Source of the DNA: Mobula hypostoma
Taxonomy: Eukaryota
Assembly (NCBI RefSeq): GCF_963921235.1
Contig: NC_086108.1
Coordinates: 38,938,001 to 39,002,000 of the forward strand
DNA length: 64,000 nucleotides
Direction: 5' to 3'
The notes beneath the pieces were generated by a model that was given only the letters and a program-made list of their open reading frames with translations, was not told the origin of the DNA and searched no databases. Each line of letters opens with the position of its first letter. Position 1 is the first letter of the stretch. Below are positions 12,223 to 38,088 of the stretch, piece by piece. The translations under genes and the position numbers were made by a program.

Positions 12223-13280
12223 CTAGGGAACCTAACAGAATCCTGCCACTATTTTCAATCAAGACTATGAATTGTCTGGTGTCTGCAAAGGTGTGCTACT
12301 TGGGTGGTGTGTGGCACCAAATCACCGGGCACACAATAGGTTCATTGAATTGGGGAATTGGTTGTCAATGGTAACAGCACCTCATGGGTCATGCTACATC
12401 ACAATCTAATGCTTGGGATCATTCAAGTAATTGAGTTGGGTGAGAGATGAATGTGGGATTCAGGTGGGAGATTGGAAAACTCAAGACAGAGTGGCAGTAG
12501 CTGTGACTGTGAGGGAGGAACACAAGGTCATTTTTGCAACTATGAAGTATTTTACTTGCAGGGAAGTATCAGAAGATGAGTTTCCAACATTAGGCTCCCA
12601 TGGTCTAGAATCTGCTCAACCATGTTTCCTTTAATTAACAGCATCCTTCCCATGTACTGTAAGGCTGTCCATGTACAGTTTCAAACAATATCAGACTGCT
12701 TGCAGGTCTGTGACTTGTCTTTACAAGTGACTTGTATTGGAGTTTGAGTTATGTAATGCACAAAGCCATTCTACCACACAATTCCATTGCTTGGCCATTT
12801 TCTGTACAGCCAATATATAAACACTTCCTCTACGCTAAACATTTGTGTTACCTATATCAGTCCCTTCAGAAGTCCCAAAGTGTTCCACAAAAAGCAAGTT
12901 ACTTTAGTCACACGAAGAACAGGCAGCTAAGTTGTTCATTGCAAGCTCTTAGAAATAGAATATGCTAATAGGTGAATTGCGATATTATTTGCTTTGTCGT
13001 AGTGTTGGCTGACATATGAATTTTGGTCAAGATACCGGGAAAACCTTTGCTGCTTTTATTCTTGATGTAATAATGCCTAGGGATCTTTTACAATTCCTTG
13101 TAAGGAATGCGAAGAGATCTCTTACAATCCTTTGAAGAGCAATCAGAGGCTTGATTTAATGTCTTATCGGAAAGACGGATGAGATTTGAATAAGTTGCAA
13201 GTTCAGATGTGTTTATCTACTCATCAAAAGGTACAGTCAGTTAATACTTTATGTACTACACTACTTCCCATGGTACTTAC

Positions 13281-13789
13281 CTGAGCTTGGAAAATTCACT
13301 GAGGGATGACGATTACACAATCAGTTCATTATCATATTGACAAGCATAATTGATTAACATACTCAGGGAGACACTTTAACCTAAAACGATGCTGCTCTTT
13401 GAACTGGAAAAGAAACAATCTCCAGAGTTTATTGGGATTAAAATTTAAGATTGTTTTTAAGGCCAGCTAAAGACAGCAAAGAGGTCCTGACAATTACAAA
13501 GTACACCACAGGCTACAACTTTAGCTGCAGGGTTCAGGTGTGGCTGTAACCTGACACCTGAGCAAGGTTCCGAGTAGGATCTGACAGAAATTGCTGGTTT
13601 TCAAAAGGTAGAGGCAGAAATTACATGAAAACTGGAAGCTGGGATGCAGAAAGAAGGGATATTTTTGAAATCATCCTATTATTTTGAAAATCAACCACAC
13701 AGCATAAGAACCGAAGATCAGTAAGCTGTAAGGGGACAGGCAACTCGTAGAGCTGTTTTGCAAGGTTCTTAAGTTCCTGCGATCGATCA
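13281..13789 (-). pseudogene. Relic exon of the GREB1-family pseudogene
   Basis: Strong donor CAG|gtaagt at 13281. Translation SQELKNLAKQLYELPVPLQLTDLRFLCC...LLSASQLPVFM*FLPLPFENQQFLSDPTRNLAQVSGYSHT*TLQLKL*PVVYFVIV; the pattern QLP-x22-LA-x13-KL-x4-YxVI has the same spacing as recalled GREB1 SAQLPWLASLAASSCNDSVHVIECAYSLAEGLSEMFRLLVEGKLAKTNYVVII. 5' boundary uncertain. Confidence 0.6.
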
Positions 13790-13853
13790 CTTCAGAATTA
13801 AAACTCTAAAATTTGGAAGTGGTTTTCGAGCCACACAGCTATGGACTCGTAGA

Positions 13854-13935
13854 ATGGAAGAACAACTGCTGCCTTGCCTTGGCTGGTTGCTGACCACAAT
13901 ACTTGTACTAAAGGAAGGATTTTTTCTCACACAAG
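13854..13935 (+). CDS. CRB3-like short Crumbs gene, coding exon 1 (signal peptide)
   Basis: agaATGG Kozak context; MEEQLLPCLGWLLTTILVLKEGFFLTQ hydrophobic leader; phase-1 donor CAAG|gtaatg; candidate acceptor cacttcag| at 13795. Joins in frame (G+CA = Ala) to 24813. Confidence 0.7.
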
Positions 13936-14479
13936 GTAATGATCTGTTTGCTAAAAGTAAGGGGAGCTGTAGAAGTAGAAATATGCTTTTTCCAGATGAA
14001 ACTGGATTGGATACTGACATGGCAAAGTCATATAACAGGAAAGCAGGCCTTTCAGCCCACAATGGTTTCTGCTGAATAAACGTACCAAGTTATATTCATT
14101 CCTTTTTCCACCAATTGGCTTCTAACCTTCTATGAGATGCTGTTTTAAGTGCTCATCTAAGTACTTCTCCAGTGTTCTGAAAGGGCCTGCTTCCAAATTA
14201 CAAACATCCTCGGGGTAAATAAATATCTTCCTTAAATCTTAGACCCCTGCATTAAACCTGTGCCCTTGGTTGGGGAGACATTTCTGCCAAGGGGTAAATT
14301 TTCTCACTAATTCTCCCTGAAACACCTTGTATAATACTATTTCCCTCAATCAGGGTGCCCCACAGCCTTACCCACATGGAAAACAAACCCAGGCTGTGTA
14401 GTGTTTCCCCTGGCTGAAATCTTCCATCTCAGGCAACAGGTAGAGGATGAGCAATAAGTTTGGTCCTGACCACGGAAGC

Positions 14480-14705
14480 TGTCCGTGTAGAGTCTGCACG
14501 TTTTTCCATTGACTGCACGAGACTCCTCTGCTACATCACAATTGCATTCTGCTTCACAGGTTAATTGGTAGTTGTAAATTATCCTTTGTGTAGGTAGGTG
14601 GGGAGTTGAGGAGCATGAGAGATAAATGAGGGAATGAGATTTACAAGATGGTCCTGAGAGCAAGCACAGATTCAATGGGCTGAATGGCTTTTCTCCGTGT
14701 CCTCT
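14480..14705 (+). repeat. Degraded SINE (HE1-like, with CR1-type tail)
   Basis: gtctgcacgttttcc...ggttaattggt..tgtaaatt..gtgtaggtaggtg...gggctgaatggc, similar to the copy at ~58500-58800. Confidence 0.45.
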
Positions 14706-17700: not shown

Positions 17701-17980
17701 AAATAATTTTTGAAATACAATTAAATGGAGCCAAGCACAGAAGTTCCTAAACGAGAATACTAAGGCTCATTTAGTTGGCCTGACCCTGTCATTGTCACGT
17801 GATACAAGACAGGTGTTGTCTATACCATCGATGAGTGCTCATAGCAAAATGGAAATTGATAGATTTAACACAGCCTTATATTAATATAGACTATGATTTT
17901 AGCCTAATTCAGCTGTTTTAAGGTTCTGTTCACAAAGGACTTAGATTTTAAAAAACTGTTTCTGTAGCGTTGTACACATT

Positions 17981-20900
17981 CATAGAACATAGAACAGTGC
18001 AGCTCAGGAGGGGGCCCTGTGCCCCACAATGTTGTGCCAAACCAGCTAAAAAGCAAATCCAAAACATCCAAACACCAATCCCTCCAACCTACACAATATC
18101 TATATCACTCCGTCTTCCTCACATTCATGGGCCCATCTGAACGTCTCTTCAAAGCCTTTAATGTATTTGCCTATACCACCATACCAGGCAGCGCATTCCC
18201 AGGCATCCACCATCTCGGAGTGAAAAAAAACTTACCCCTCACATCCCCTTGAACCTACCCCCTCCCACCTTCAATGCATGCCCTCTGGTATTAGACATTT
18301 CAACCATGGGAAACAGATACTCCCTGTCTACTCTATCTATGCCTCTCATAATCTTGTAAACCTCTTATCAGATCTCCCCTCAGTCTCCAATGCTCCAGAG
18401 AAAACTATCCAAGTTTGGCCAGCCTTACATGATAGCTCATGTCCTCTAAACTAGGCAGCATCCAGAAAAATATCTTCTACACCCTCTCCAAAGTCTCAAC
18501 ATCATTCCTATAGGGGCAACCAGAACTGAATGCAATACTCCAGATGTAGCCTAACTTATAAAGTGGCAGGGAGATGGGAACCAGAGTACCAGAACAGTTA
18601 GTGGACAGGTTGTGGAGACAGATATTGGTAAGACCTCAGAAAAAGTCAGGAATCAGAAGGTTGAGCATGGTGTAACTAGTGCCCTGAGCTGCATATATTT
18701 CAATACAAGAAGTGTCATCATAGGAAAGGTGGACAACCTCAGGGCTTGGATCAACACCTGGAATTTTGTTATTGTAGCTAATAGTGTGACTTGATTGCAG
18801 GAGGGGCAGGACTGGCAGCTCAATATTCCTGGGATCCGTTGTTTTAGATGTGACAGAGTGAGAGGGATTAAAGGAGGAGGGGTGGTGTTACTAGTCAGGG
18901 AAAATGTCATGGCTGTGCTCTGTCACAATAAGCTGGAGAACTCATCTGGTGATGCATTATGGGTGGAAATAGGAAATGAGACCGTGTTAATGGGGCTATA
19001 TCACAGACCACCCAACGGTCCTAGGGACTTAGAGGAACAAATTTTTAAAGGTATCACAGACTGTTGTAACAAATGTAAGGTTGTTATAGTAGGTGATTTT
19101 AACTTTTCACATATTGACTGGGAATCCCATGCAGTAAAAGGACTAGATGGGATAGAATTTGTCAAATGTGTTCAAGTAAAGTTTCCTTCATCACTTCATA
19201 GAAGTCCAACAAGAGAGCATGTGATACTTGATTTGCTGTCAGAGAATGAGACAGGGTAGGTAACAGAAGTTTTTGTAAGGGAACACTTTGCATCTAGTGA
19301 CCACAATGCCATTAGTTTCAAACAAAATATGTAAAATGATAGGTCTGGTCTGCAGACTGAGGTTCTAAATTGGAGTAAGGCCAAATTTGATGATATCAGA
19401 AATAATCTGGCAAGTATTGATTGGGACAGGCTGTTCTCTGGCAAAAGGTGTACTTACTAATTAGGAGGCCTTCAAAAGTGAAATGTTGAGAGTAAAAAGC
19501 TTGTATGTCCTTGTCAGAATAAAAAGTAAAGACAATAAATGTAGGGAACCTTGATTTTCAAGGGATATTGAGACCCTGCTTAAGAGAAAAAAACAGAGGT
19601 GCAGAGCAGGTATGGGCAGGTAGGAACAACTGAGGTGCTTACGGAGTATAAGAAATGCCAGAGAACACAAGAAAGAAACCAGGAAGGCTAAAAGAAGGCA
19701 CGGAGCTCCTCTAGCAGACAAGGTGAAGGAGAGTCCCGAGGGATTCTACAGATATGGTAAGAGCAAAAGGATTGCAAGGGACAAATTGGCCCTCTGGAAG
19801 ACCAAAATGGTAATCCATGTGCGGAGCCAAAATAGATGAGAGAGAACTTAAATTTCTTTTTTTGCATCTGTATTTACTCAGGAGATGACACAAAGTCCAT
19901 AAGAGTGAGGCAAAGTGGCAGCAACTTTATGGACCCTACACAGATTACAGAGGAGGAGGTGTTTGCTATCCTGAGGCAAATCAGGGTGGATAAATCCTCG
20001 GGGCCTGACAAAGTATCCCCATGGACCCTATGGGAGTCAAGTGCAGAAATTGCCAGGGCTCTAGCAGAGATATTTATATCATCCTTAGTGACAGGATAAG
20101 TACCAGAGGATTTGAGGATAGCCAGTGTTGTTCCACTGTTTATAAAAGGCTTTAAATGTAAACCAGGAAAGTATAGGCCAGTGAGTCGGATGTGGATGTA
20201 GGAAAGTTATTGGAAGTATTCTAAGGGATCAGAGATATTAGTATTTGGATAGACAAGGACTGATTAAGGATGGTCAGCACAACTCCATGCGTGGTAGGTC
20301 ATGTCTAACCAATCTTATAGAGTTTTTTGAGGAAGTTACCATGAAAGTGGATGAAGGCAAGGCAGGGGATGTTATCTACATGAACTTCAGCAAGACATTT
20401 CCTAAGGTCCCACATGGGAAGTTGGTCAAAAAGGTTCAGTCGCTTGGCATGCAAGATGAGGTAGTAAATTGGATCAGGTATTGGCTTTGTGGAAGAAGGC
20501 AGAGAGTGGTTGTAGATGGTTGCCTCACTGAATGGAGGCCTGTGACTAGTGTAGCTTTGCAGGAATCGGTGCTGAGTCCTTTGTGTGTCATCTGAATCAA
20601 TGATATGGATGATAATGTGGTTAACTGGATCAGCAAATTTGTGGATGACACCAAGATTGGGGGTGTAGTGGACAGCAAGGAAGGCTATCATGGCTTGCAG
20701 AGGGATCTGCATCATCTGAAAAAATGGGCTTAAAAATGGCAGATGGAATTTAATGCAGACAAATGTGAGGTTTTGCACTTCGGTAGGACCAGCCAGGGTA
20801 GGTCTTACACTGCGAACGGTAGGGCACTGAGGAGTGTGGTAGAACTAAGGATTCTGGGAATACAGGTACATAATTTGTTAAAAGTGGCATCACAGGTAGA

Positions 20901-23398
20901 TAAGGTCGTAAAGAAAGCTTTTGGCACATTGGCCTTCATAAATCAATGCACTGAGTACAGGAGATGGGATGTTTGGTTGAAGTTGTATAAGACATTGGTG
21001 AGGCCTAATTTGGAGTATTGTGTGCGGTTTTGGTCACCTATCTACAGGAAAGATGTAAACAAGGTTGAAAGAATACAGAGAAAATTTACAAGGATATTCC
21101 TGAGTCTGGAAGACTTGAGTTATAAGGAAAGATAGAATATGTTAGAACTTTATTCCCCAGAACATAGAAGATTGAGCGGAGATTTGAGAGAGGTAAGAGG
21201 CAAGCACATTTTTTCCACTGAGGTTGGGTGGGACTAGAACCAGAAGCCACAGGTTAAGGGTGAAAGGTGCAAAGTTGAAGGGGAATATGAGGGGACCCTC
21301 CTCACTCAGAGAGTCACGAGAGTGTGGAATAAGATGCCAGCTCAAGTGGTGCATGCAAGCTCGATTCCGAAATTTAAGAGAAGCTTGGATGGGTACATGG
21401 ATGGTAGGGGTATGGAGGGCTATGGTGTTGCTGCAGGTTGATGGGAATAGGCAGTTTAAATGGTTTTGGCCTGGACTAGATGGGCAGAAGGGCCTCTTTC
21501 TATGATGTACTCTGTGACTCTATGACAAATCTATGCAACATAACCTCTGGACTTTTGAACTCAATGCATTGAATAATAAAAACAAGCTTTCAAAATGCCT
21601 TCTTCACCATCTTATTGGCCTGTGTAGCCACCTTCAAGGAGCTATGAACCTGGATTCCAAGATCTCTCTGCTCAGCAACACTATTAGGGATCTTGCCCTT
21701 AACAGTCTACTGTCTCCTTGTACGTGACCTACTTTTACCAGATAGAAGTGCAACACCTCACACTTATTTGTGTTAAACTCCATCTGCCTTTTCTATGCCC
21801 ACATCTGCAAATGATGTATGTTATACTGTATTCTTTGCCAGTCTTCTACACTATCCACAACTCCACAATCTTGGTATCATCCACAAACTTACTAACCCAC
21901 CAATCTATATTTTCATCCAAGTCATTTATATACAAGCAGCACGGATCCCTGTGGAACACCACTAATTATAGACCTCCAGCTCGATAAGTCCCTTCAACCA
22001 CAACCCTCTGTCTTCCATGCGCAAGCCAGTTCTGAATCCAAGCAGCCAATTCACCACCTTTCCCCATGCATCTTAATTTTCTGGTTTAGCCTCCCATTAG
22101 GGATTTTATCAAATGCCTTACTAAAGTCCATGTAGACACCATCCACTGCCCTACCTTCATCAATCTCTCTCGTCACCTTGTCAAAAAACTCAGTCAAGTT
22201 GGTAAGACATGACCTGCCCCATGCAAAGCCAAGCTGGCTCTCCCTAATTAGGCCATGGATTTCCAAATGCTCATGTATCCTATCCCTAAGAATTTTCTCT
22301 AGCAATTTCTCTACAACTGACGTGAGACTCACTGGTCTATAGTTCCCAGGATTTTCTCTTGTTCTTCTTCTTAAACAGAGGTACAACATTAGCCACTCGC
22401 CTGTCCCCAGGACGTTGCCTGTGCCTGGAGAGGAGACAAAGATACGGGTCAAGGGCCCTGCATTCTTGTTTCTTGCCTCCGTCAATAACCTGGAGCAAAA
22501 CCCATCAAACCTTGGGGGAGTTATCCACCTTAATACTCATAAGGAGGCCCAATACTTCCTCCTCCTTGACATCTAAACGCTCTAATACGTTTATACACTC
22601 AGCATTGATCTCCTGGTCCTCCATCTCCTTTTCCTTGATAAAGTACCAAAGCAAAGTACTCATTAAGTACCTCATTCATATTCTCCGCATCCAAGAAAGT
22701 GTTCCCCCTTTTATCCTTGAGTGGTCCCGCTCTCTTTCTAAGGCATTGTATGTATAGAATGCCTTAGGATTCACCTTAATCCAACTTAACAAGGACTTTG
22801 CATAGCCCCCCTTGGCTTTCCTAATTCTCTTCTTAGGTTCTTTTTTGTCTTCTTTCTACTCCACATGTGCTTCATTTGACCATAGCTTCTGAAGCTTTAC
22901 ATACTTTTCATTTTTCTTCTTGACTAAATTCATCACCTGTCTGGAGATCCAAGGTTCTCCTATCTTTCCATCCTCACCCTACCTTCCAACAGGAACATAT
23001 CTTTCCTGTATTCTGTGCAATTGATCTTTAAGCACTCTCCACATGTCCGATGTGGACTTGCCAGAAAAAAGGTGTTCCCAATTAACTCTTCATAGGTCCT
23101 TCCTAATGCCCTCATAATTTACCCTACTCCGGTTTGAAACTCTCCTGCAAGGACCATGCCTATCCTGAAAGTTAGGGAGTTCTGGTCACTATTCCCTAAC
23201 TATTCACACACTGAAAAGTCAGTCGTCCAACCAGGGTCATTACCCAGCACCAGATGCAGTACAGCCCCTCTTCACATTGGATCATCCACCTGTTGATTTA
23301 AGAAACCTTTTTGGACATACTTAACAAATTCTGCCCAGTCAAAATCCCTTCCACGAAGGAGGTCCCAGTTTATATAGGGAAGTTGAAATCTCCCCATA
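17981..23398 (-). mobile_element. CR1 LINE (minus), split by a nested plus-strand CR1
   Basis: 3' tail catagaacatagaacag at ~17981; the sequence breaks at ~18565 and resumes at ~21535 (gcaacataacctc...); ORF 22051-22485 NYRPVSLTSVVEKLLE...YMDFSKAFDK. Confidence 0.85.
18566..21525 (+). mobile_element. CR1 LINE (plus), degraded ORF2, nested in a minus-strand CR1
   Basis: ORFs 18612-19259 (APE: YFNTRS, GDFNF), 20245-20595 and 20743-21135 (RT and C-terminus LVRPNLEYC); tail gtgactctatgac. Confidence 0.9.
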
Positions 23399-23666
23399 CC
23401 TGGCTTGCTGAGTTCCTCCAGCATTTTGGATGGGGCATATTAAATATGGTCAATGTAACTCAACGGGCAGCTTAGACTTAATGGGAAGAAGCAGGCGTGA
23501 AAGCCATGAATTCCCACTGGCTATGAAACCTGTCACTGTTATTGAATATTCAAAGTTAAATAGAGTCTGTTAATCAATGAAAATAATTCTACAAAATTAG
23601 AAATCTTTAAACACACAGTATTTGAATCAACCTAATTAACAAATGAAAAAAAAAATCTGTACTTAC

Positions 23667-23890
23667 ATTAGTTCTGATAGGCTGACTGCGAGCATTTTGC
23701 GTGGCACTTGTATCAGTTTGAATGGGAAGATTTCCTGTTGTGAGAGCTGGAGGCTCATGGAAGTTAGTGCTGTGATGGTGGAATTGACCAGTAATCCCTG
23801 TGCACTGTGCAAGTGGACCAGGACCAGTGATATGCTGAGCAGAATTCTTCAGAACTGCCTCACTTAGGACTAGCCCAGTTATCTTTTCAT
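23667..23890 (-). pseudogene. Possible exon of the minus-strand relic gene (open frame, strong donor)
   Basis: Stop-free frame DEKITGLVLSEAVLKNSAQHITGPGPLAQCTG...ARSQPIRTN ending at AAT|gtaagt; acceptor weak; no recognisable motif. Confidence 0.35.
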
Positions 23891-24812
23891 CTGCCAGCAG
23901 ATTCAGACAAATTGTAACAGATCTGCCCAGTTATATTCCATTTTGGCTAATTTTAATACTGTGAATTTTTAATCAAGTCAGTATTTACACAAACATCCTC
24001 AAAGACTTCCTTGTTAGACTTGAAATACAGTGCGTAGTTTCAGTAGAATTTCAGTAGTTTGATTACGTATTAGATTTGGGCATTTTAATACCTGCATTCT
24101 GCACCTACTTACATCACAGAAAGTTATGTGGAAGTATGATTTGCTTATTATTAGTTATCAATAGTTATTTTGCAGTGTATTGCCCACAGATTTAGTCGGT
24201 ATCTCAACATAAATGCAAAGGTTACTCTTTGTAACATTGGTTTATACAGCTGTTATTCAACTAAGTCATATTTTTACAATCTGTGACATTCACACAGGTT
24301 GCCAGGAGTTAAAAATAAAACAGAATAGTTTGGAATTGCAAGAAGCAGTTTTTGTGCAGAGAGAAAAAGAGCTAACATTTCTGCTTCTTGACTCTCAACA
24401 AATGAAAGTTGAGGCCAGGGCTGTAAATGAGGGTTGCACTTCCCTCATCAGATCACTTTCAGATTTGTAATGTTAATAAAAAGAAGAAAACATGTGCAGT
24501 GACTTTCCCTCCGTATTAGAATTTCACCAGCGGCTCAGGTCAGCAGTCCAGTTTTCCACCCAGGTCACACATTTCCATTTTAAGAATAGGTGTCTGCAAC
24601 ACAGGCAAAATTCACTAAATGAGCTAAAACCTGTTTACTGAACAAGTACTTAAGATTCTTCACTTTGCAATCCATCACCTTGTCAAAGAAAGCCTGCAAT
24701 AAAAATACATTTGCATTACTGTTTTGTCAGTGGCAATTTCGGTTTAGATTATGTAGATTTCAATTTTCAACATTCCAGTAATGTCTTCATACTAGTATTG
24801 GTTCCTTTACAG

Positions 24813-24865
24813 CAGTGAATGTTACAGATTCTACACCATCAAGGAAGCCTGATAACTCATCATCT
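24813..24865 (+). CDS. CRB3-like gene, coding exon 2 (53-nt stalk exon)
   Basis: gttcctttacag|CA GTG AAT ... TCA TCT|gtaagt, phase 1 to 0. Encodes (A)VNVTDSTPSRKPDNSSS, Ser/Thr-rich with two N-glycosylation sequons (NVT, NSS). NAGNAG alternative acceptor at 24816. Confidence 0.75.
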
Positions 24866-25666
24866 GTAAGTTGATAGATTTAAGTTGACCTGACGTTGAT
24901 ATACACCATGGGTTTCAGTATAATTCAGCTTTTAAGGAACAATTCAGAAAGGATTTAGTTAAAAAAAACTGTTTCTGTAGCACTATACAGGTTTATCTTT
25001 GGAATGCCAATTGATCTTCCAATTATCACTAACAGGACACTATCAGGTTAATACCATGATCAACAATGCAGTTTTTAAAGAAGCCTTTACAATTGAAACG
25101 AACATAAATTAGTGCAATTATATGCATTATCCTTCTAATGCATTTATGTATAAATGCCACTTCAGAAAATCAGATTGCAGTCTCCAAGCCTTTCATGCTT
25201 TTGTTGTGGAAATATTCCTGATAGAGAAGGGCATGATATTAATAACAAGCATTGAATTAGATACAAAAAGTATGAATTTATTATGCATGAATTATTACAT
25301 CAGGGCTTAATGTTGAAGTAGTCTATTGTGCAATAAATGTTACCCAACAGTGGGAAGAAAACAAGCATAATGTAAATATAAAAACTGAAGCTGCAGCAGA
25401 TGAGTAACTCAGTTGCTGCTGGCTTGGACTCAGATTTGATCTTCAGTTCACCCCCAATCTCCAGGATCCCCAGTATAATCCGGAGTGCCGGGGAAGGGTC
25501 CGAACGCATACCAATCTTACCAGCTAGCAGGCAGTAGCTCATCCTAAAACTGGATGTTGGGCTGGTCTATGTCAGGTCATTATCTCACTGATCATCAAGA
25601 GCAGCGAAGGAAGGCAGTAGAAAAGCAGATGCAAGGAATGGGGAGGTTACATGTATTTCCAAAAGA

Positions 25667-28600
25667 TAGAACATAGCACATAGAATAGTACAGCACAGTA
25701 CAGGCCCTTTGGCCCTTAAACCCTGCCTCCCATATAAACCCCCACCTTAAATTCTTCCATATACCTGTCTAGTAGTCTCTTAAATTTCACTAGTGTATCT
25801 GCCTCCACCACTGACTCAGGCAGTGCATTCCACGCACCAACCACTCTCTGAGTAAAAAACCTTCCTCTAGTATCCCCCTTGAACTTCCCACCCATTACCT
25901 TAAAGCCATGTCCTCTTGTATTGAGCAGTGGTGCCCTGGGGAAGAGGCGCTGGCTGTCCACTCTATCTATTTCTCTTAATATATTGTGTACCTCTATCAT
26001 GTCTCCTGTCATCCTCCTTCTCTCCAAAGAGTAAAGCCCTAGCTCCCTTAATCTCTGATCATAATGCATACTCTCTAAACCAGGCAGCAGCCTGGTCAAT
26101 CTCCTCTGTACCCTTTCCAATGCTTCCACATCCTTCCTATAGTGAGGCAACTAGAACTGGACAGAGTACTCCAAGCGTGGCGTAACCAGAGTTTTATAGA
26201 GCTGCATCATTACATCGCGACTCTTAAACTCCATCCCTCAACTTATGAAAGCTAACACCCCATAAGCTTTCTTAACTGCCCTATCTACCTGTGAGGCAAC
26301 TTTCAGGGATCTGTGGACATGTACCCCCAGATCCCTCTGCTCCTCCACACTACCAAGTATCCTGCCATTTACTTTGTACTCTGCCTTGGAGTTTGTCCTT
26401 CCAAATTGTACCACCTCACACTTCTCCGGGTTGAAATCCATCTGCCACTTCTGCATCCCATCAATATCTCTTTGCAATCTTCGACAATCCTCTACACTAT
26501 CCACAACACCACCAACTTTAATGTCGTCTGCAAACTCGCAAACCCACCCCTCTACCCCCACATCCAGGTCATTAATAAAAATCATGAAAAGTAGAGGTCC
26601 CAGAACCGATCCTTGTAGGACACCACTAGTCACAATCCTCCAATCTGAATGTACTCCCTCCACCACGACCCTCTGCTTTCTGCAGGCAAGCCAATTCTGA
26701 ATCACCTGGCCAAACTTCCCTGGATCCCATGCCTTCTGACTTTCTGAATAAGCCTACCATGTGGAACCTTATCAAATGCCTTACTAAAATCTATGTAAAT
26801 CATATCCACTGCACTATCCTCATCTATATGCCTGGTCACCTCCTCAAAGAACTCTATCAGGCTTGTTAGACACGATCTGCCCTTCACAAAGCCATGCTGA
26901 CTGTCCCTGATCAGACCATGATTCTCTAAATGCCCATAGATTCTATCTTTAAGAATCTTTTCCAACAGCTTTCCTACCACAGACGTAAGGCTCACTGGTC
27001 TATAATCACCCAGACTATCCTTACTACCTTTTTTGAACAAGGGGACAATATTTGCCTCCCTCCAGTCCTCCGGTACCATTCCCGTGCACAACGAGGACAT
27101 AAAGATCCTATCCAGGGGCTCAGCAATCTCTTCCCTCGCCTCGTGGAGCAGCCTGGGGAATATTCCGTCAGGCCCCGGGGACTTATCCGTCCTAATGTAT
27201 TTTAACAACTCCAACACCTCCTCTCCCTTAATATCAGCATGCTCCAGAACATCAACCTCACTCATATTGTCCTCACCATCATCAAGTTCCCTCTCATTGG
27301 TGAATACCGAAGCGAAATATTCATCGAGGACCTCGCTCACTTCCACAGCCGCCAGGCATATCTTCCCACCTTTATCTCTAATCAGTCCTACATTTACTCC
27401 CGTCATCCTTTTGTTCTTCACATAACTGAAGAATGCCTTGGGGTTTTCCCTTACCCTACTCGCCAAGGCCTTTTCATGCCCCCTTCTTGCTCTCCTCAGC
27501 CCCTTCTTAAGCTGCTTTCTTGCTTCCCTATATTCTTCAATAGACCCATCTGATCCTTGCTTCCTGAACCTCATGTATGCTGCCTTCTTCCACCTAACTA
27601 GATTTTCCACCTCACTTGTCACCCATGGTTCCTTCACCCTACCATTCTTTATCTTCCTTACCGGGATAAATTTATCCCCAACATCCTGCAAGACATCCCT
27701 AAACATCGACCACATGTCCATAATACATTTCCCTGCAAAAACATCATCCCAATTCACACCCATAGGTTCTAGCCTTATAGCCTCATAATTTGCCCTTCCC
27801 CAATTAAAAATTTTCCTGTCCTCTCTGATTCTATCCTTTTCCATGATAATGCTAAAGGCCAGGGAGCAGTGGTCACTGTCCCCCAAATGCTCACCCACTG
27901 AGAGATCTGTGACCTGACCCAGTTCATTACCTAATACTAGATCTAGTATGGCATTCCCCCTGGTCGGCCTGTCCATGTACTGTGACAGGAATCCGTCCTG
28001 GACACACTTAACAAACTCTGCCCCGTCTAAACCATTGGAACTACTCAGGTGCCAATCAATATTAGGGAAGTTAAAGTCACCCATGATAACAACCCAGTTA
28101 TTTTTGCACCTTTCCAAAATCTGCCTCCCAATCTGCTCCTTGGCATCTCTGCTGCTACCAGGGGGCCTATAGAATACTCCCAACAGGGTAACTGCTCCCT
28201 TCCTGTTCCTGACTTCCACCCATGCTGACTCAAAAGAGTATCCTGCGACATTACCCACCCTTTCTATAGCTATAATAGTATCCCTGACCGGTAATGCCAC
28301 CCCTACTCCCCTTTTCCCCCCTCTCTATCCCTTTTAAAGCACTGAAATCCAGAAATATTGAGAATCCATTCCTGCCCTGGTGCCAGCCAAGTCTCTGTAA
28401 TGGCCACTACATCATAATTCCATGTATGTATCCAAGCTCTCAGTTCATCACCTTTGTTCCTGATGCTTCTTACATTGGAGTACATACACTTTAGCCCTTC
28501 TGCCTTACTACCTTTACACCGTTTATTCTGCTTCTCTTTCCTCAAAGCCTCTCTATATGTTAGATCTGGCTTTACTCCATTCACTTTCTTTCACTGTTCT

Positions 28601-29345
28601 ATCGCTCCGGGTCCCATCCCCCTCCCGAACCATGCTAGCAAACCTACCTGCAAGGATATTGCTCCCCCTCGAGTTCAGGTGCAACCTACCCAATCTGTAC
28701 AGGTCCCACCTTCCCCAGAAGAGATCCCAATGATCCAAAAATCTAAAACCCTGCTCCCTGCACCAACTCCTCAGCCATGCATTCAACTGCCATCTCCTCC
28801 AATTCTTACCATCACTGTCACGTAGCACTGGCAGCAATCCTGAGAACGCCAACCTTGAGGTCCTGTTCTTCAGCCTTCTGCCTAATTCCCAAAACTCACA
28901 CTTCAGGACCTCATCCCTCTTCCTGCCTATGTCGTTGGTACAAACATGTATCACGACTTCTGGCCGCTTTCCCTCTCGTACCAGGATGTCATGCACCCGG
29001 TCAGAGACATCCCAGATCCTGGCACCCAGGAGGCAACAAACCACGCGGGTGTCCTTCTCGCGTCCACAAAATCTCCTGAATGCTCCCCTGACTATAGAGT
29101 CTCCAATGACGACAGCTCTCCTCTTCTCCGTTCCACCCTTCTGAACCACAGGGTCAGACTCAGTGCCGGAGGCCCTGCCACCGTGGCTCACCCCTGGTCG
29201 GCCGTCCCCGCCAACAGTATCCAGGATGGTAAACTTATTATTTAGGGGAATGGCTACAGGGGTGATCTGCACTACCTGTCTGCTCACCTTCACTTTCCCC
29301 CCTCTGACTGTCACCCAACAACCTGCTTCTGGCAGCTTAGGTTTT
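25667..29345 (-). mobile_element. CR1 LINE, near full-length and relatively young (ORF1 esterase + ORF2 APE/RT)
   Basis: ORF 28553-29314 SGNH-like (VVIGDSIVRG, TNDIG, LHLN); ORFs 28303-28584, 26702-28300 (532 aa), 26238-26705 and 25716-26150 cover APE, RT and C-terminus with few disruptions. Confidence 0.95.
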
Positions 29346-29734
29346 TAGAAGTAAATGTGTATTAAAGTAAATGGAAACATTTCACCCGGAAATATTTTAA
29401 TCCCAGAATACAAGAAAGCATGGAAGACAAATACTTAGCTAATCACATCCATGCTTCATGTGTAAAAGAGTATTCCAATTAATCCTACCCCTCAAGCACC
29501 TCCTCCATTTCCTTGCAAATATTTCCTTTCCAGTCATTTACCAATTTTCTTTCAAAAATTTCATACGAGTCTGCTCCACTACTTGTTAAGGTAACACAAT
29601 CCAAATCAAACTTAAATATGCTTTTGAACAAAAGAAGCAAGTTTGGGCTTTTGATTTACAGGCCTAGTCTAGACGAATGTTTGTCCCATTTGTGCCAGTC
29701 TTTCTAATTATAAAAATATGGATTATTTTCACAG

Positions 29735-29956
29735 ACAACTTCGCCACCTAGCCAAGTAAACATAGCAGCCATTGTGGCTCCATGTGTCATTGTTGGGGTG
29801 ATAGTTCTTGCTACCATTCTGACTTTCCTAATCCTAAAACTGCGTGAGAAACGTAAGACTGAAGGGAACTACAGTCCAAGCAACCAGGAACAAACAGCAG
29901 CTCAAATGGAAATGAACAATGCTCTTAAACTACCACCAGAAGAGCGCCTGATTTGA
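29735..29956 (+). CDS. CRB3-like gene, terminal exon (TM + Crumbs cytoplasmic tail)
   Basis: gattattttcacag|ACA, phase 0; TTSPPSQVNIAAIVAPCVIVGVIVLATILTFLILKLREKRKTEGNYSPSNQEQTAAQMEMNNALKLPPEERLI*. KLREKRxTEGxY...LKLPPEERLI is the CRB3-type tail. Confidence 0.9.
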   Translation, partial: TTSPPSQVNIAAIVAPCVIVGVIVLATILTFLILKLREKRKTEGNYSPSNQEQTAAQMEMNNALKLPPEERLI

Positions 29957-30085
29957 TGTGCTGAAGCTTTGGGATACAATCTTGGGGGTTAATGGTGGAA
30001 GATGTCAACATACCCCAGGTATTCCCTATGCTACTCAACAATTGGAGTTAAAAAAAATCTGTCACAAAGCTGTGGAACTCAAAGA

Positions 30086-30112
30086 GTGTGTGTGTGCGCG
30101 CGCGTGCGTGCA
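30086..30112. repeat. (GT)n(GC)n alternating purine-pyrimidine tract
   Basis: gtgtgtgtgtgcgcgcgcgtgcgtgca between the two Crumbs terminal exons. Confidence 0.85.
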
Positions 30113-30194
30113 TTATTTCTTTAAACCAAGGCAGCTTCAAAGCTAATCCAGTGTGGGCTATCCCTAAGTGTTTAATTGTTTTCACTCTTGTCAG

Positions 30195-30407
30195 CAGGAA
30201 GCCTGGACCTCAGAGTTTCTTCTTTATACTGGGTTGGTCACCGTCGTGTTGTTGCTGATTTTCTTTCTAGTACTTGCTGCCACTATTATGACCCTGAATA
30301 AAAGAGCAACACATGGGGCCTACAGCCCAAGCCGGCAGGAGAAGGAGGGGTCACGAGTGGAGATGTGGAACATGGTGCAACCACCACAAATGGAAAGACT
30401 TATTTGA
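30195..30407 (+). CDS. CRB1: Crumbs homolog 1, last coding exon (TM + cytoplasmic tail)
   Basis: ttttcactcttgtcag|CAG (NAGNAG), phase 0; [70 protein letters not shown], closely matching the CRB1 tail [25 protein letters not shown]..PPxMERLI. The DENND1B neighbour fits known synteny. No EGF exon found in the window, so upstream exons lie outside it. Confidence 0.92.
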
Positions 30408-30587
30408 ATGAAGCTTGTTTCACTACATATTGTCATGTCACCTCTGCATGGATAGGCTGAGGACTATTCAATTCAACATCTTGCGAGAAATGCTTTGTTA
30501 GTATTAGATATTTTCTGTTACCCATTTGCGGGCATCACCAGCAAGGCCTATTTAATGCCAATCTCTAACTACCCATGAGATGGTACT

Positions 30588-30593
30588 AATAAA
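30588..30593 (+). terminator. Candidate polyadenylation signal for Crumbs transcripts
   Basis: First AATAAA after the CRB1 stop; further copies at ~31158, ~31182 and ~31318. Confidence 0.35.
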
Positions 30594-32039
30594 CTGCCGA
30601 CTTGAACTGTGGACAGTCAACATGAATGTACCTTCACAGTGTAATTAACTAGGTAATTCAACTTTAATCTGTCACTTGCTTGCCCCGATATTCAAATATG
30701 TTATTGAAAATTGCTCTTCCTCAAAATTTTCAACAGATAAGGGGTCTCGATGCTAATAAGTGATATTAAGAATACAAAATGTGCACAAATACAGAAAATT
30801 TGATGCAATTGGATGGTTCAGCCAAGATAATAAGCCGATGTACCAACAACTCTTAGGCGTTACTGTTAAGAACAAGGTGGTCAGAAACGGAGCATTAAAC
30901 TCCTTGTGATAGATGAAAATTGAACCACATGCATCTCAGCAGGGTGAAAATATTAAAATTCTTCTCTTTTATTTCATTGTAGTCATTCAAATTTTTTTTT
31001 TGTAATACAGCACCGTTTTTTACATTAATGTACTCAAGATCACCAAGACCCAGGCAAAGAATCACAGAATTACAAATTGTGGTCTGAGAAAATTGATCTT
31101 TTGAGTTGATTTAGAATTAAGATGGACAAAAACAGGTTATAGTTCTGTCAACAAGCAAATAAACAAGTGAAAACATGACAAAATAAAAATATTAGACACA
31201 ATTTATAATGGTTTTAACCATGTTGAAAACAGACACTTTATCACAGTGTAAATCTTTGTATAACAGTACTATAACAGTGTTACAAACCATACAGATACCC
31301 TACTTTTTTTCTGATGAAATAAACCTTTGTTACACATATTCAAATTAGTCACTAGTTTCAAGCGAGTTCTTTGAAGGAATCAAAGCTGGTTAATATTTCA
31401 TGGGTCAATTCTGCACCTAAAGAATAGCATCCACATAAGATGTTCCTTTAGTTCTTCCTTTTTTCAAGCATTTTTTATTTCTAGTATTTTCTTATTTCAG
31501 TTCTTTTTAACTCTGGAAAAATTGACATTTTTTACTTGTATTGAGACTCCTTTGAAGAACTGTTGAACGGAGAGAGGTTAATATTTACCAGATCATGCTT
31601 TAATCTCCATCTGCATTGAACAAACATTTTAAATGGAACGCACGTTCAAAGTAGCCTGGTAAATTGATTATTTTCAGTATCTGACTAACACACAGTATTT
31701 TATGGCAGAATTGGGCAAAATCAGCTGAAGGATGTTTATCAGATTTTGATGTTTTTCCTGATTTGGGAATGCTTTTATTACTATCCATATGGTGGGAGAT
31801 GTTAATTGCCAGAGTTCAAGGTCAAGCACCACACAAATGGTGTTAGCTCCAATCAGTGAGATTAAATACAAGGAACAGTAGCATAAGTTGCATGGGGTCA
31901 GTTTTAATATGTATATGCTAAGAATATCAAGGAACTTGCTTATAGTTATTGATTAATTGCAAAGATATGTGTTTGTTTAAAATAAGTGAGAAGGCTTTGA
32001 TGATGATGGTATAATAAAACTATCAAGACAAATTGGAGG

Positions 32040-35000
32040 ACAGGAAGCGCGTGGACATCAGCCAGTGAGAACAGCTAGAAGAATTTAAAAGAGAAAGAGT
32101 TTAAAGAGTTGAATTTCTGTATTTTATAGCTGTAGAAGATATATATTAATAAAAAGATTTAAAAATGAGTTTAAAGGGAGTCGGTTATTTCTTCAGCGGT
32201 TTGATCAAGGCACAACTGTGCAAGTGCGCGGACGTCAGCCAGTGTGAACAGCGAGAAGAGTTTAAAAGGAGACAGATTTATAGAGCAGGCGACAGAGTAA
32301 AGGGAGACAGTAGGAAGAGACAGAGTAGGAAGGCTTTGGCTCAACGGGGCTTTGGCGATAATGGTTCGAGGTGAGGTAGGTTAACTGTATAGAATACAGA
32401 CAGGAAGAATGTGTGTGAAGCCAGTGTTCTGTGCTCGGTGTCAGATGTGGGAAGTCTGGGAGACTCCCAGCCTCCTGGACGGCCACATCTGCACCAGGTG
32501 CGTCGAGGTGCAGCTCCTTAGGGACCGTGTTAGGGAACTAGAAATGCAGCTCGATGACCTTCGTCTGGTGAGGGAAAGTGAGGACATGATAGAGAGGTGC
32601 TATAGGCAGGTAGTCACACCAGGGCCTGGGGAGACAGATAAGTGGGTCACGGTCAGGAGAGGAAATGGCAGGAGTCAGAGGCTAGAGAGCACCCCTGTGA
32701 CTGTCCCTCTTGACAATAAGTACTCCTGCTTGAGTACTGTTAGGAGGGGGGACGGCTTACCTGGGGGAAGCAATAGTGGCCGTGCCTCTGGCACAGAGTC
32801 CGGCCCTGTGGCTCAGAAGATTAGGGAAAGGAAGAGGATGGCAACAGTGATAGGAGACTCAGACAGGCGATTCTGTGGACGCAGGAAAGAAACTTGGATG
32901 GTAGTTTGCTTCCCAGGTGCCAGGGTCTGAGATGTTTCTGATCACGTCCAAGACATCCTGAAGTGGGAAGGAGAACAGCCAGAGGTCATGGTACATATTG
33001 GTACCAAGGACATAGGCAGGAAAAAGGAGGAGGTTCTGAAAGCAGATTACAGGGAGTTAGGAAGGAAGTTGAGAAGCAGGACCACAGAAGGTGTCATCTC
33101 GAGATTAATGCCTGTGCCACGTGACAGTGAGTATGGGAATAGAGTGAGGTGGAGGATAAATGCGTGGCTGAGGGATTGGAGCAGGGGGCAGGGATTCAGA
33201 TTTCTGGATCATTGGGACCTCTTTTGGGGCAGGAATGACCTGTACAAAAAGGACAGGTTGAACTTGAATCCCAGGGGGACCAATATCCCAGCGGGGAGTT
33301 TTGCTAAAGCTACTGGGGAGTGTTTAAACTAGGATTGCTGGGGGTTGGGAACCAAGCTGAAGAGATGGACGAAGAGGTGGTTGGGTCACAAATAGAGAAA
33401 GCTTGGAGTCAATGCGAGTGGGAGGATAGACAGGTGATAGAGAAGAGAAGCGCTCAGATCGATCGTTTGAGATGTGTCTATTTTAATGCAAGGAGTATTA
33501 TGAACAAAGTGGATGAGCTTAGAGTGTGGATCAGTACTTGGATCTATGATGCTGTGGCCATTACAGAGATCGGGATGGCTCAGGGGTAGGAGTGGTTACT
33601 TTGAGTACCAGGCTTTAGATGTTTCAGAAAGGACAGGGAGGGAAGCAAAAGAGGTGGGGGCGTAGCCCTGTTGATCAGAGATAGTGTCATGGCTGTAGAA
33701 AAGGAGGAAGTCATGGAGGGATTGTCTATGGAGTCTCTGTGGGTGGAAGTTAGGAACAGGAAGGGTTCAATAACTCTACTGGGTATTTTTTTATAGGCCA
33801 CCTAATAGTAACAGGGACTAGAGTTGCAGATAGGGAGACAGATTCTGGAAAGGTGTAATAATAAAAGGGTTGTTGTGGTGGGAGATTTTAATTTCCCAAA
33901 TATCGATTGGCATGTCCCTAGAGCAAGGGGTTTAGATGGGGTGGAGTTTGTTAGGTGCGTTCAGGAAGGTTTCCTGACACAATATGTAGATAAGCCTACA
34001 AGAGGAGAGGCTGTACTTGATCTGGTATTGGAAAATGAACCTGGTCAGGTGTCAGATCTCTCAACGAGAGAGCATTTTGGAAATAGTGATCACAATTCTA
34101 TCTCCTTTACCATAGTATTGCAGAGGGATAGGAGCAGACTAGTTAGGGAAGCATTTAGTTGGAGTAAGGGGAAATATGAGACTATCAGGCAGGAGCTTGG
34201 AAGCATAAATTGGGGACTGCTGTTCTCAGGGAAATGTACAGAAGTAATGTGGCAAATGTTCAGGGTATACTTGTGTGGAGTTCTGCATAGGTACATTCCA
34301 ATGAGACAGGGAAAGGATGGTAGGGTACAGAACTGTGGTGTACAAAGGCTGTTGTCAATCTACTCAAGAAGAAAAGAAGAGACTACAAAAGGTTCAAAAA
34401 GCTACGTAATGATAGAGATCTAGAATATTGTAAGGCTAGCAGGAAGGAGCTTAAGAAAGAAACTAGGAGAGCCAGAAGGAGCCATGAGAAGGATTAAGGA
34501 AAACCCCAAGGCATTCTACAAGTATGTGAAGAGCAAGAGGATAAGACGTGAGAGAATAGGACCAATCAAGTGTGACAGTGGAAAAGTGTGTATGGAACCG
34601 GAGGAGATAGCAGAGGTACTTAATGAATACTTTGCTTCAATGTTCACTATGGAAAAGGATCTTGGTGATTGTAGGGATGACTTACAGCAGACTGAAAAGC
34701 TTGAGCATGTAGATATTAAGAAAGAGGATGTTCTGGAGCTTTTGGAAAGCATCAAGTTGGATAAGTCACGAGGACCAGACAAGATGTACCCCAGGCTACT
34801 GTGGGAGGTGAGGGAGGAGATTGCTGAGCTTCAGGTAATGATCTTTGCATCATCAATGGGGACAGGAGAGGTTCTGGAGGATTAGAGGGTTGCAGATGTT
34901 GTTCCATTATTCAAGAAAGGGAGTAGAGATAGCCCAGAAAATTATAGACCAGTGAGTCTTACTTCAGTGGTCAGTAAGTTGATGGAGAAGATCCTGAGAG

Positions 35001-36330
35001 GCAGGATTTATGAACATTTGGAGAGGCATAATATGATTAGGAATAGTCAGCATGGTTTTGTAAAAGGCAGGTCGTGCCTTACGAGCCTGATTGAATTTTT
35101 TGAGGATGTGACTAAACACATTGATGAAGGTAGAGCAGTAGATGTAGTGTATATAGATTTCAGCAAGGCATTTGACAAGGTACCCTGTGCAAGGCTTATT
35201 GAGAAAGTAATGAGGCATGGGATCCAAGGGGACATTGCTTTGTGGATCTAGAACTGGCTTGCCTACAGAAGGCAAAAAGTGGTTGTAGACAGGTCATATT
35301 CTGCATGGAGGTCAGTCACCAGTGGAGTGCATCAGGGATCTGTTCTGGGACCCCTATTCTTCATGATTTTTATAAATGACCTAGGTGAAGAAATGGAGGG
35401 ATGGGTTAGTAAATTTGCTAATGACACAAAGGTTGGAGGTGTTGTGGATAGTGTGGAGGTCTGTCAGAGGTTACAGTGGGACATTGATAGGATGCAAAAC
35501 TGGGATGAGAAATGGTAGATGGAGTTTAACCCAGATAAGTGTGAGGTAGTTCATTTTGGTGGGTCAAATATGATGGCAGAATATAGTATTAATGGTAAGA
35601 CACTTGGCAGTGTGGAGGATCAGAGGGATTTTGGGATCCGAATCCATAGGACACTCAAAGCTGCTGCGCAGATTGACTCTGTGGATAAGAAGGCATATGG
35701 TGCATTGGCCTTCATCAATCGTGGGATTGAGTTTAAGAGCCGAGAGGTAACGTTACAGCTACATGGGACCCTGGTCAGACCCCACTTAGAGTACTGTGCT
35801 CAGTTCTGGTCGCCTCACTACAGGAAGGATGTGGAAACCATAGAAAGCGTGCAGAGGAGATTTACAAGGATGTTACCTGGATTGGGGAGCATGCCTTATG
35901 AGAATAGGTTGAGTGAACTCAGCCTTTTCTCCTTGGAGCGACGGAGGATGAGATGTGACCAGACAGAGGTATATAAGATGATGAGAGGCAATGATCATGT
36001 GGATAGTCAGAGGCTTTTTCCCAGGGCTGAAATGGCTAACGCGAGAGGGCACAGTTTTAAGGTGCTTGGAAGTAGGTACAGAGGAGATGTCAGAGGTAAG
36101 TTTTTTTAAAAAAACGCAGAGAGTAGTGAGTGCGTGGAATGGGCTGCCGGCAACAGTGGTGGAGGTGGATACGATAGGGTCTTTTAAGAGACTCCTGGAC
36201 AGGTATATGGAGCTCAGAAAAATAGAGGGCCATGGGTAACCCTAGGTAATTTCTCAGGTAAGGACATGTTTGGCACATCTTTGTGGGCCAAAGCGCCTGT
36301 ATTGTGCTGTAGGTTTTCTATGTTTCTGTA
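32040..36330 (+). mobile_element. CR1 LINE, full-length but disabled
   Basis: Duplicated 5' UTR motif (~32044, ~32221); ORF1 Zn-finger/coiled coil (CARCQMW..HICTRC..LEMQL) plus esterase (VIGDS, VHIGT); ORF2 APE/RT pieces 33320-36109; tail tttctatgtttct. Confidence 0.95.
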
Positions 36331-37129
36331 TTTCCACGATTTTACACCCTGGTGACAATTCAGTCGAACAGATCCATATTGTAGTAAATGTCCCACACAA
36401 GCTTCATGAGTCTCACCGTGAACAACATGTCCTCTATTTTTTTCTTCTTTCATCTAACCTTATCATAAATACTATTCATTTCACTCACTCCATCTGGCAG
36501 CAAGTTCTTCGAAAAGTAAACTTTTTTTAAATAAAGACGTTTCTCTTGAACTCTTTGTTGTATTCCTTAGTAAATTCTTAAGTGAACGTTTTGGACTAGC
36601 TCAAAAGTGGAAATATTATTGATTATATTGAACACTTTAATAATTAGTCATCTCATCTCCTGCTCTTCCCTCGTCTTTCCTGACAGTGATATCCTCACAG
36701 TACTTTAGGCCAAATTGACTCAAAGAGACAGCCTGCCTGAGATTAGGGTAACATAGAAGAATGGTTAGATCTGCACAGATCCATAAATGCAGCAAGTGAA
36801 TAGGCAAGGGCAAAGGGTTTAGAGGAATTCCAGGTGGGAGAGAACTTTGTTCAAGGTTATGCACAGGGTACTCTGATATGAAGGTAGAATTACCTACCCA
36901 GAAACATGAGTGGAGGGATGAAGTAACAACATACAACCAATCCAGAGAGGAAGGAATGATATGTGGCACCAGCGTTCCTTTACCTGACCTAAGCGTGAGG
37001 GAAAGTGATTTCCTGATAAGATAAATGCAAAATAATTACTCTACAGAATCAAACAGTAGGTATTTGGGTGGATATAGAGGACAGTTATTTGCTGGATATG
37101 GATTCAAAAGGCAAACAAGAGAAAATCTA

Positions 37130-38088
37130 CAGGTGCCGTCTCCAATGGGATCTCACCACCCAGCACATCTTCCCCACGCACCCCCCCCCCCGCACTTCCT
37201 GCTTTCTGCAGGGATCGCTCCCTTAGTGGCTCCCTTGTCTATTCATTTCCCACATCCCACTAACCTCCTTCCTGGTACTTATCCTTACAAGCAGAACAAG
37301 TGCTACTCCTGCCCCTACGCCTTCCCCCTCACTACCATTCAGGGGGCACCAAAGTGTCCTTCCAGGTGAGATGACACTTCACCTGCGAGTTTGTTGGGGT
37401 CATCAACTGTATCCGGTGTTCCCGGTGTGGCCTCCCAGTATATTGGTGAGACCTGACATAGATTGGGAGACTGCTTCGTCGAGCATCTATGCTACATCCA
37501 CCAGAGAAAGCAGGATCTCCCAGTGCCCACCCATTTTAATTCTACTTCCCATTCCGACATGTCAGTCCATGGCCTCCTCTCCTGTCGCAATGAGACCACA
37601 CTCAGGTTGCAGGAGCAACACCTTATATTCTGTCTGGGTAGCCCGCAACCTGATGACATGAATGTTGATTTCTCAAACTTCTGGTTATGTCACCCGCTCC
37701 CCACCCCTGCACCATTCTCCGTTCCCATTTCCCTTTCTCACCTTATCTTCTTAACTGCCCATCACCTCATCACATCCCTCTGGTGCTCCTCCCCCTTCCC
37801 TTTCCTCCATGGCTTTCTGTTTTCTCCTCTCAGATTCCCCAGCCCTTTACCTCTTTCTCCAATCGACTTCCCAGCTCTTTGCGTTACCCCTCCCTGTCTT
37901 GGTTTCACCTATCACCTACTACCTTTATTTCTTCCTGTCCTCCCCGCACCTTCTTACTCTGACTTCTCGTCCTTTATCTCCAGTCCTGATGAAGGGTTTT
38001 GGCCTGAAGCATCGACTGTTTACTCTTTTCCATAGATGCTGCCTGGCCTACTGAGCTCCTCCAGCATTGTGTGTGTGTTGCTTGGATT
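37130..38088 (+). mobile_element. Penelope-like element 3' fragment (GIY-YIG endonuclease)
   Basis: Reads SFQVR*HFTCEFVGVINCIRCSRCG...YIGET*HRLGDCFVEHL...VPTHFNSTSH...EQHLIFCLG, followed by a pyrimidine-rich tail and the catagatgctgcctggcc...ccagcatt arm. Confidence 0.8.

Follow-up and report, generated by a model that had tools for sequence, protein, structure and literature searches.

A CRB3-type gene nested in the CRB1 locus of a ray, with tandem terminal exons as candidate alternative tails

Crumbs proteins determine apical polarity, and their single transmembrane segment is followed by a tail of ~37 residues that carries a juxtamembrane FERM-binding stretch and a C-terminal PDZ-binding ERLI. 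We analyzed the 3′ end of the CRB1 locus of the ray Mobula hypostoma, where a CRB3-type and a CRB1-type exon for transmembrane segment and tail stand in tandem, in a stretch of 64,000 nucleotides (contig NC_086108.1, positions 38,938,001 to 39,002,000; hereafter the window, with positions counted from its first letter). CRB1 is a major retinal-dystrophy gene, and the diversity of its isoforms has been recognized only recently, according to the excerpted text of Ray et al. 2020 (PMC7335077). In the same excerpts, mammalian CRB1-A and CRB1-B have alternative C-termini and differ in promoters and cell types, and the CRB1-B tail, which lacks FERM- and PDZ-binding motifs, comes from a 3′ exon unique to CRB1-B.

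The ray locus resembles the mammalian system, as excerpted, in that one CRB1 ectodomain may end in different transmembrane/intracellular modules through alternative 3′ exons. It differs from CRB1-B in offering a complete CRB3-type Crumbs tail with ERLI as the alternative, encoded by an exon that also ends a second, nested gene. In zebrafish, crb2b has a short form that comes from a second, internal transcription start beside the long form (PMC11129452, in excerpt), and the two loci are alike in having a short product as well as a long one. Unlike the nested unit of the ray, with its own signal peptide, stalk and terminal exon, the zebrafish crb2b-sf of those excerpts has a large ectodomain and the terminal exon of the long form.

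The nested product is closest to classical vertebrate CRB3, sharing a length of ~120 amino acids, a signal peptide, a short glycosylated stalk, a transmembrane segment, the tail pattern ...KRxTEGxYxPS...LKLPPEERLI and the same clade in a tree of tails. It differs in being a distinct paralogue that lies physically inside CRB1; the second CRB3 of chondrichthyans groups with classical CRB3. Hits of our CRB3 search show both endings of that family, mostly ERLI, with ...CLPI in P0238 and P0252, and we take these to be the isoforms named CRB3A and CRB3B. There, too, the cytoplasmic end is altered by alternative 3′ splicing, but within one gene and in the last tail residues only, whereas the swap in the ray would exchange a whole transmembrane-plus-tail exon between paralogous modules. 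In the literature covered, to which subscription journals did not belong, we found no description of a CRB3-type gene or exon inside CRB1 with tandem last exons and a shared mRNA end.

We give a probability of about 0.6 to the reading that the locus combines a nested CRB3 paralogue, a shared mRNA end and two alternative acceptors that give two possible tails to long CRB1. On this reading, the 3′ end of the locus holds a CRB3-paralogue gene with its own first exon, which runs in the direction of CRB1 within the last CRB1 intron, and the tail exons would serve one terminal unit as a pair of alternative 3′ acceptors, with cleavage and polyadenylation ~2 kb farther on, near 32150. The structure and transcript path of the short gene are shown by the data: its donors take the upstream acceptor, translation stops at 29956, and the CRB1 exon stays untranslated in a 3′ untranslated region (UTR) of ~2.2 kb. 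The locus would then be a natural system where a single ectodomain may sit on either of two Crumbs membrane-plus-tail modules, and it offers a testable route for the origin of the ectodomain-less CRB3.

Tandem exons and the nested short gene

The upstream tail exon is the last of three coding exons of a short gene, whose product of 118 amino acids consists of a signal peptide, a short stalk, a transmembrane segment and an ERLI tail. Its spliced open reading frame (ORF) is identical to the RefSeq 'protein crumbs homolog 3-like isoform X1' of M. hypostoma (P0121). The coding exons and the spacer between the two tails are placed as follows.

about 13527..13935, + strand: exon 1 of the nested gene, with 5′UTR, ATG at 13854 and a signal peptide of 27 codons; from RNA contigs, tblastn of P0121 and the sequence
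24813..24865, + strand: exon 2 of the nested gene, 53 nt, reading AVNVTDSTPSRKPDNSSS and finishing in phase 0; from tblastn of P0121 and frame arithmetic
29735..29956, + strand: CRB3-type terminal coding exon, with the stalk end, the transmembrane segment and a 37-residue cytoplasmic tail ending ERLI; stop TGA at 29954-29956
29957..30194, + strand: spacer between the tail exons, exactly 238 nt; 3′UTR of the short gene and, for canonical CRB1, the end of the last intron
30195..30407, + strand: CRB1-type terminal coding exon, with the transmembrane segment and a cytoplasmic tail ending MERLI; stop TGA at 30405-30407

The original prediction had proposed tandem CRB3-type and CRB1-type exons 238 bp apart, both entered in phase 0 and with no AATAAA between them, and the sequence bears out these coordinates and frames. 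The CRB3-type exon (acceptor AG at 29733-29734) translates as TTSPPSQVNIAAIV...KLREKRKTEGNYSPS...LKLPPEERLI and matches the last 73 residues of P0121 at 100% identity. Two sharks, an electric ray and a chimaera have counterparts with 77-86% identity to it, and all five matches of its protein search were chondrichthyan CRB3(-like) proteins of 118-121 amino acids. The CRB1-type exon (acceptor AG at 30193-30194) is identical to the tail of the M. hypostoma CRB1 model P0130 and 97% identical to the C-terminus of its best match, the CRB1 of Hypanus sabinus with 1439 amino acids; 129 of 197 candidate proteins matched it at E <= 0.001, nearly all of them CRB1 and from nearly every vertebrate group. 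The tail tree described below places the nested product in the CRB3-type clade and the downstream exon in the CRB1 clade. In both translations a hydrophobic span is followed by (E/N)KR(K/A)T(E/H)G(N/A)YSPS and a C-terminal ERLI. No Pfam model covers the Crumbs tail, the only match being a borderline one to Syndecan (25.3 bits against a cut-off of 25.2).

The two acceptors differ in strength, the upstream one being weak (45% pyrimidine at -23..-4) and the downstream one a strong polypyrimidine acceptor (75%) with a NAGNAG (CAGCAG) tandem at 30192-30197. The phases agree throughout. Exon 2 of the short gene finishes on a full codon at 24865, and the CRB1-type exon has its conserved tail in phase 0 only. 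The penultimate CRB1 exon also finishes on a full codon (...CEFD), followed by V-S in the M. birostris read-through model P0132, which matches reading on through a GTAAGT donor (GT = Val). With both acceptors and both donors in phase 0, all four pairings of donor and acceptor are in frame.

The spacer contains neither AATAAA nor ATTAAA, and only TTTAAA, at 30120, was found there in a scan for 14 poly(A) hexamers. The plus strand of the window holds 111 copies of AATAAA/ATTAAA, which gives an expectation of 0.41 in 238 nt and a probability of ~0.66 for finding none. At the window's own hexamer density this absence is thus expected about two times in three; it is not significant and proves nothing alone. 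A canonical AATAAA overlooked in the original prediction does stand at 30297-30302, inside the CRB1-type exon, where the conserved NKRAT stretch has its Asn-Lys codons, and could direct premature polyadenylation of either transcript. The spacer also contains a (GT)5(GC)n or GC/GT-rich tract at 30086-30113, which is 80-110 nt before the CRB1 acceptor; splicing repressors are known to bind UG repeats close to acceptors.

Exon 1 of the short gene finishes in phase 1 at a donor AAG|gtaatg after 13935. The original prediction had also overlooked that skipping the 53-nt exon 2 breaks the frame. The acceptor of exon 2 is a NAGNAG (CAGCAG) at 24810-24815, where use of 24816 yields the RefSeq isoform X2 (P0127) with one Ala fewer; this accounts for the isoforms X1 and X2 of 118 and 117 amino acids. 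When three full-length CRB1 proteins were compared with the window by tblastn, only the terminal exon was matched (other matches had E = 0.37-0.77), and no EGF/LamG exon was found in 1-30177. The ectodomain exons of CRB1 lie outside the window, and the last CRB1 intron is thus longer than 30 kb and holds the entire short gene in the same orientation. The earlier claim that a long CRB1 transcript must skip the three coding exons of the nested gene agrees with this result. In RefSeq, CRB1 and the CRB3-like gene of M. hypostoma have consecutive accession numbers on the same contig of 118,116,484 bp.

RNA across the shared 3′ end

The RNA data consist of assembled contigs from four runs (X1-X4) of one organism and one study, mapped over 12500-32400. 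Donors of the nested gene use the upstream acceptor, and its transcription continues through the CRB1 exon. A GT..AG joint 13935>29735 was found in three of the four runs (X2, X3 and X4), the exon 1 part ending at 13933/13935, and in all four, contigs with 0 mismatches run on from 29733/29735 across the stop, the spacer and the whole CRB1 exon and extend to 32069-32140. Single contigs without a mismatch run from exon 1 to 32140 in X3 and to 32074 in X4. In X1, one contig extends to 30688 and another from 30673 to 32137, at similar depths (15.8 and 12.5); in X2, one reaches 30960 and the next covers 30989-32069, with the depth falling from 11.7 to 5.1. None of the four runs has a break, end or fork of a contig at 29956 or 30195. 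Beyond these distal ends, the next AATAAA is at 32148-32153.

30408..32153, + strand: shared 3′UTR, in which contigs reach 32069-32140 and AATAAA occurs at 30588, 31158, 31182, 31318, 32013 and 32148-32153

Contigs of the short gene thus pass through the CRB1-type exon and on into a shared 3′ region, the poly(A) site itself lying beyond the contig data. It had been predicted that the mRNA of the short gene carries the CRB1 exon as 3′UTR, and the contigs, uninterrupted from 29735 to ~32140 in four of four runs and joined to exon 1 in three, support this. If the shared end holds, the 3′UTR of a broadly epithelial short gene, and hence any regulation based on it, would be coupled to the coding sequence of a neural long gene.

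Assembly could nevertheless have merged two transcripts, the short mRNA ending in or just past the CRB1 exon (at AATAAA 30297 or 30588) and the distal 3′UTR belonging to CRB1 only. The positions of these two signals would suit such a merger, as would the contig breaks at 30673-30688 in X1 and at 30960-30989 in X2, the latter with its halved depth, and a contig that spans two genes does not show a single transcript. On the other hand, the single 0-mismatch contigs of X3 and X4 start in exon 1, the X1 depths are alike, and contigs neither fork nor end at 30195, although a fork or end there would be predicted had much of the distal read supply come from CRB1 mRNA. Even in a merger, the short mRNA would contain at least part of the CRB1 exon. 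We consider it improbable that the contigs join CRB1 mRNA to a short mRNA that stops at 30297 or 30588.

At the 5′ end of the short gene, where a promoter of its own may lie, contigs start at 13527-13596 in three of the four runs with no joint or loose end upstream among those listed, and contigs cannot show a true 5′ end; gene models of M. birostris and Scyliorhinus torazame splice CRB1 sequence into nested exon 1. The joint in X2, X3 and X4 bypasses exon 2, which shifts the frame and leaves an ORF of 32 amino acids (the signal peptide and DNFAT, then a stop). Exon 2 has no contig cover in X2 and X4, a finding we used only jointly with the joint that bridges it. X1 seems to be the sole run to include exon 2, judging from the 83 unplaced letters before 29735 in its contig (53 + 30) and a depth of 1.3 in the exon 2 bin. 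Skipping of this exon may be unproductive splicing that tunes protein output.

Choice of tail in long CRB1 transcripts

For long CRB1, the pre-mRNA would pick either the weak upstream (45% pyrimidine) or the strong downstream (75%) acceptor; the penultimate exon, with its phase 0 end, can be joined in frame to both. Joining to 30195 would give the canonical CRB1 tail, and joining to 29735 would place the long EGF/LamG ectodomain before a transmembrane segment and tail of CRB3 type. As both tails retain the FERM-binding stretch and ERLI, such a swap would alter the membrane span and linker, not the set of motifs.

We infer this choice of acceptor from gene models of related species, having examined eight CRB1-named proteins from two 90% clusters. 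The CRB1 tail ends three of the eight, P0001, P0130 and P0005, from Hypanus, M. hypostoma and Rhincodon. Two are exact CEFD|TTSPP...ERLI hybrids, Hemitrygon akajei XP_072919604 (P0131) and Stegostoma tigrinum isoform X1 XP_059503772 (P0134), in which the penultimate CRB1 exon is joined in frame to the CRB3-type exon, exactly at the exon boundaries. One, the M. birostris model P0132, reaches the CRB3-type tail through nested gene exons 1-3, and the remaining two (P0133 and P0135) end in other ways. A partial model of Scyliorhinus torazame (P0128) likewise has CRB1 EGF sequence fused to the nested gene.

In P0132, the sequence after ...CEFD continues by donor read-through, upstream of the window, into a hydrophobic stretch and then ...RMDDEPAVE. 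This ending resembles the C-terminal peptide RMNDEPVVEWGAQENY given as specific to mouse CRB1-B in the excerpts of PMC7335077, and rays probably have a CRB1-B-type tail as well, a third ending option at the CRB1 locus.

The opposite hybrid fared differently. A short stalk with the CRB1 tail has an open frame of 115 amino acids, and 28 short proteins with a CRB1 tail were found; the 16 inspected included no clean hybrid at the exon boundary. Eleven of these were intron run-on ORFs or fragments, three were eel-type fusions, and two teleost proteins (P0316 and P0317) jump from exon to exon at homologous positions mid-exon, which looks like an alignment artefact. Of the four combinations of ectodomain and tail originally proposed, the long ectodomain with the CRB3-type tail found a counterpart in two RefSeq models and is plausible but unproven in M. 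hypostoma, whereas the short stalk with the CRB1 tail is unsupported, with no listed joint into 30195 and no case in the 16 proteins. The related claim that the exons act as alternative 3′ acceptors stands in part: both acceptors are in frame and 29735 is used in the RNA, but the same donor joined to both was seen in no single organism, the donors of the nested gene leading to 29735 only among the joints listed.

RNA folding as the basis of a switch was considered and rejected. The spacer and acceptor (29957-30230) fold no better than shuffled sequences (z = -0.11; 87 of 200 fold as well), and the CRB3-type exon is flanked by no more than short, imperfect inverted repeats, with 15 nt at 80% in the best pair.

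Several points weigh against two alternative tails on a shared mRNA end. The four runs were chosen for containing all sampled words of 29735-30650 and are taken as RNA solely from the GT..AG joint, and their contigs give a single mean depth each and may merge overlapping transcripts. None of the 15 joints and 24 loose ends listed touches 30195 (a further 62 and 930 lie beyond the list), nor does any listed joint lead from a CRB1 ectodomain exon, whose donor lies outside the window, to 29735 or 30195. Much of the short-gene RNA may be non-productive, given the skipping of exon 2. The hybrids are computed RefSeq models without visible read support, from species other than M. hypostoma, and in M. 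hypostoma, Hypanus and Rhincodon the canonical CRB1 tail is the only one annotated. Finally, the RefSeq CRB1 of M. hypostoma and Hypanus reads CEFD-LN-QEAW with 'LN' codons that do not adjoin 30195, and the exact canonical junction there is not fully understood. Codons for LNQ do occur at 30121-30129, 68 nt upstream of the EAW codons and without canonical splice sites, and a micro-exon as the source of 'LN' was discarded, as window positions 1-30200 contain no hexamer for Leu-Asn flanked by AG and GT/GC. Homology with teleost and amniote exon starts indicates that the ancestral CRB1 terminal exon started two codons earlier.

Much of this would also fit two independent overlapping genes that make one protein each, the joins of ectodomain and CRB3-type exon being splicing noise or model artefacts from abundant short-gene reads, and no tail switch being functional. 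Such independence would explain why three species have CRB1 models with the CRB1 tail only and why the hybrid junction is absent among the RNA joints listed. P0132 and P0128 are clearly conjoined models, read through from one gene into the other so that a signal peptide is buried within the protein, and thus mark annotation at the CRB1/CRB3-like locus as error-prone; teleost predictors similarly yield implausible fusions with two transmembrane segments. Yet in a ray and a shark the RefSeq annotation puts the junction precisely at both exon boundaries and in frame, in Stegostoma as isoform X1, and phase compatibility is conserved across the species examined. Every CRB1 pre-mRNA, moreover, includes the upstream acceptor, which should therefore be used to some extent. 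We rate independence as possible, if somewhat unlikely, and retain the reading with two alternative CRB1 tails.

Age of the tandem arrangement and surrounding sequence

A full HMMER scan with the 118-residue protein found 197 relatives at E <= 0.001. Among the ten relatives named, chondrichthyans proved to have a second CRB3 gene too, in Callorhinchus ('3a') and Mustelus. In a tree of 39 tails, built on as few as 68 columns, CRB1 tails formed one clade (100/99) and CRB3-type tails a separate one (97/91). Within the latter, the chondrichthyan nested genes grouped with the CRB3-like halves of fused teleost models at weak support (85/21), this group being sister to classical CRB3 (94/89), and CRB2 tails fell on the CRB3-type side (96/98). 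By its place in this tree, the upstream exon is an ancient CRB3 paralogue rather than a recent duplicate of the CRB1 one.

The two tail exons of the ray are 46% identical to each other over 48 residues and share the stretch ATTnTTTTCAC before both acceptors, as could be expected had the CRB1 terminal exon been duplicated recently in this lineage to give mutually exclusive copies. The upstream exon clusters with CRB3 proteins and not with CRB1 tails, however; it has the 77-86% identity given above to its shark and chimaera counterparts and is part of a gene with its own signal-peptide exon. A recent duplication is accordingly very improbable, and we keep to an old nested paralogue.

Teleost gene predictions place a CRB3-like transmembrane/tail sequence directly before that of CRB1 in 6 + 3 models, to which the mid-exon hybrids P0316 and P0317 add. 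These fused models (P0002-P0004, P0006-P0008, P0293, P0298 and P0315-P0317, from ~11 species) are 'hypothetical proteins' with two transmembrane segments or mid-exon hybrids. They are a recurrent annotation artefact and also indicate the same tandem order in bony fishes. The tandem arrangement explains this recurrent error as well as the conjoined CRB1 models in rays and sharks. In the coelacanth Latimeria, 'crumbs homolog 3a' (P0140) and CRB1 (P0010) share a contig of 172,207,807 bp in their records, and linkage to CRB1, or nesting in it, may hold for the CRB3-type gene there too.

More speculatively, the CRB1 locus of the ray could retain an ancestral vertebrate Crumbs architecture of a long gene, an internal short unit and tandem terminal exons, with an A-type exon like the tails of CRB1 and invertebrates and a B-type exon like CRB3. 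CRB3 would then be the surviving nested short unit of a duplicate from whole-genome duplication and not a truncated Crumbs, and CRB2 a long form fixed on the B-type tail. We regard this scenario as unlikely; if it is true, the hybrid of long ectodomain and CRB3 tail in the ray and shark models would be the present-day equivalent of the CRB2 design.

The rest of the window consists of debris of long interspersed nuclear elements (LINEs) and Tc1-type transposons.

25719-29344 (- strand), 32385-38032 (+ strand), 50591-51229 (- strand) and 56977-58098 (- strand): LINE fragments and Tc1-type debris, with GDSL-esterase ORF1, endonuclease and reverse transcriptase, and also a Sleeping-Beauty/Tc1-type transposase remnant

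These elements account for very high repeat depth in the RNA contigs. One LINE occupies most of the intron and stops ~390 bp before the 29735 acceptor, and another begins just past the mRNA end.

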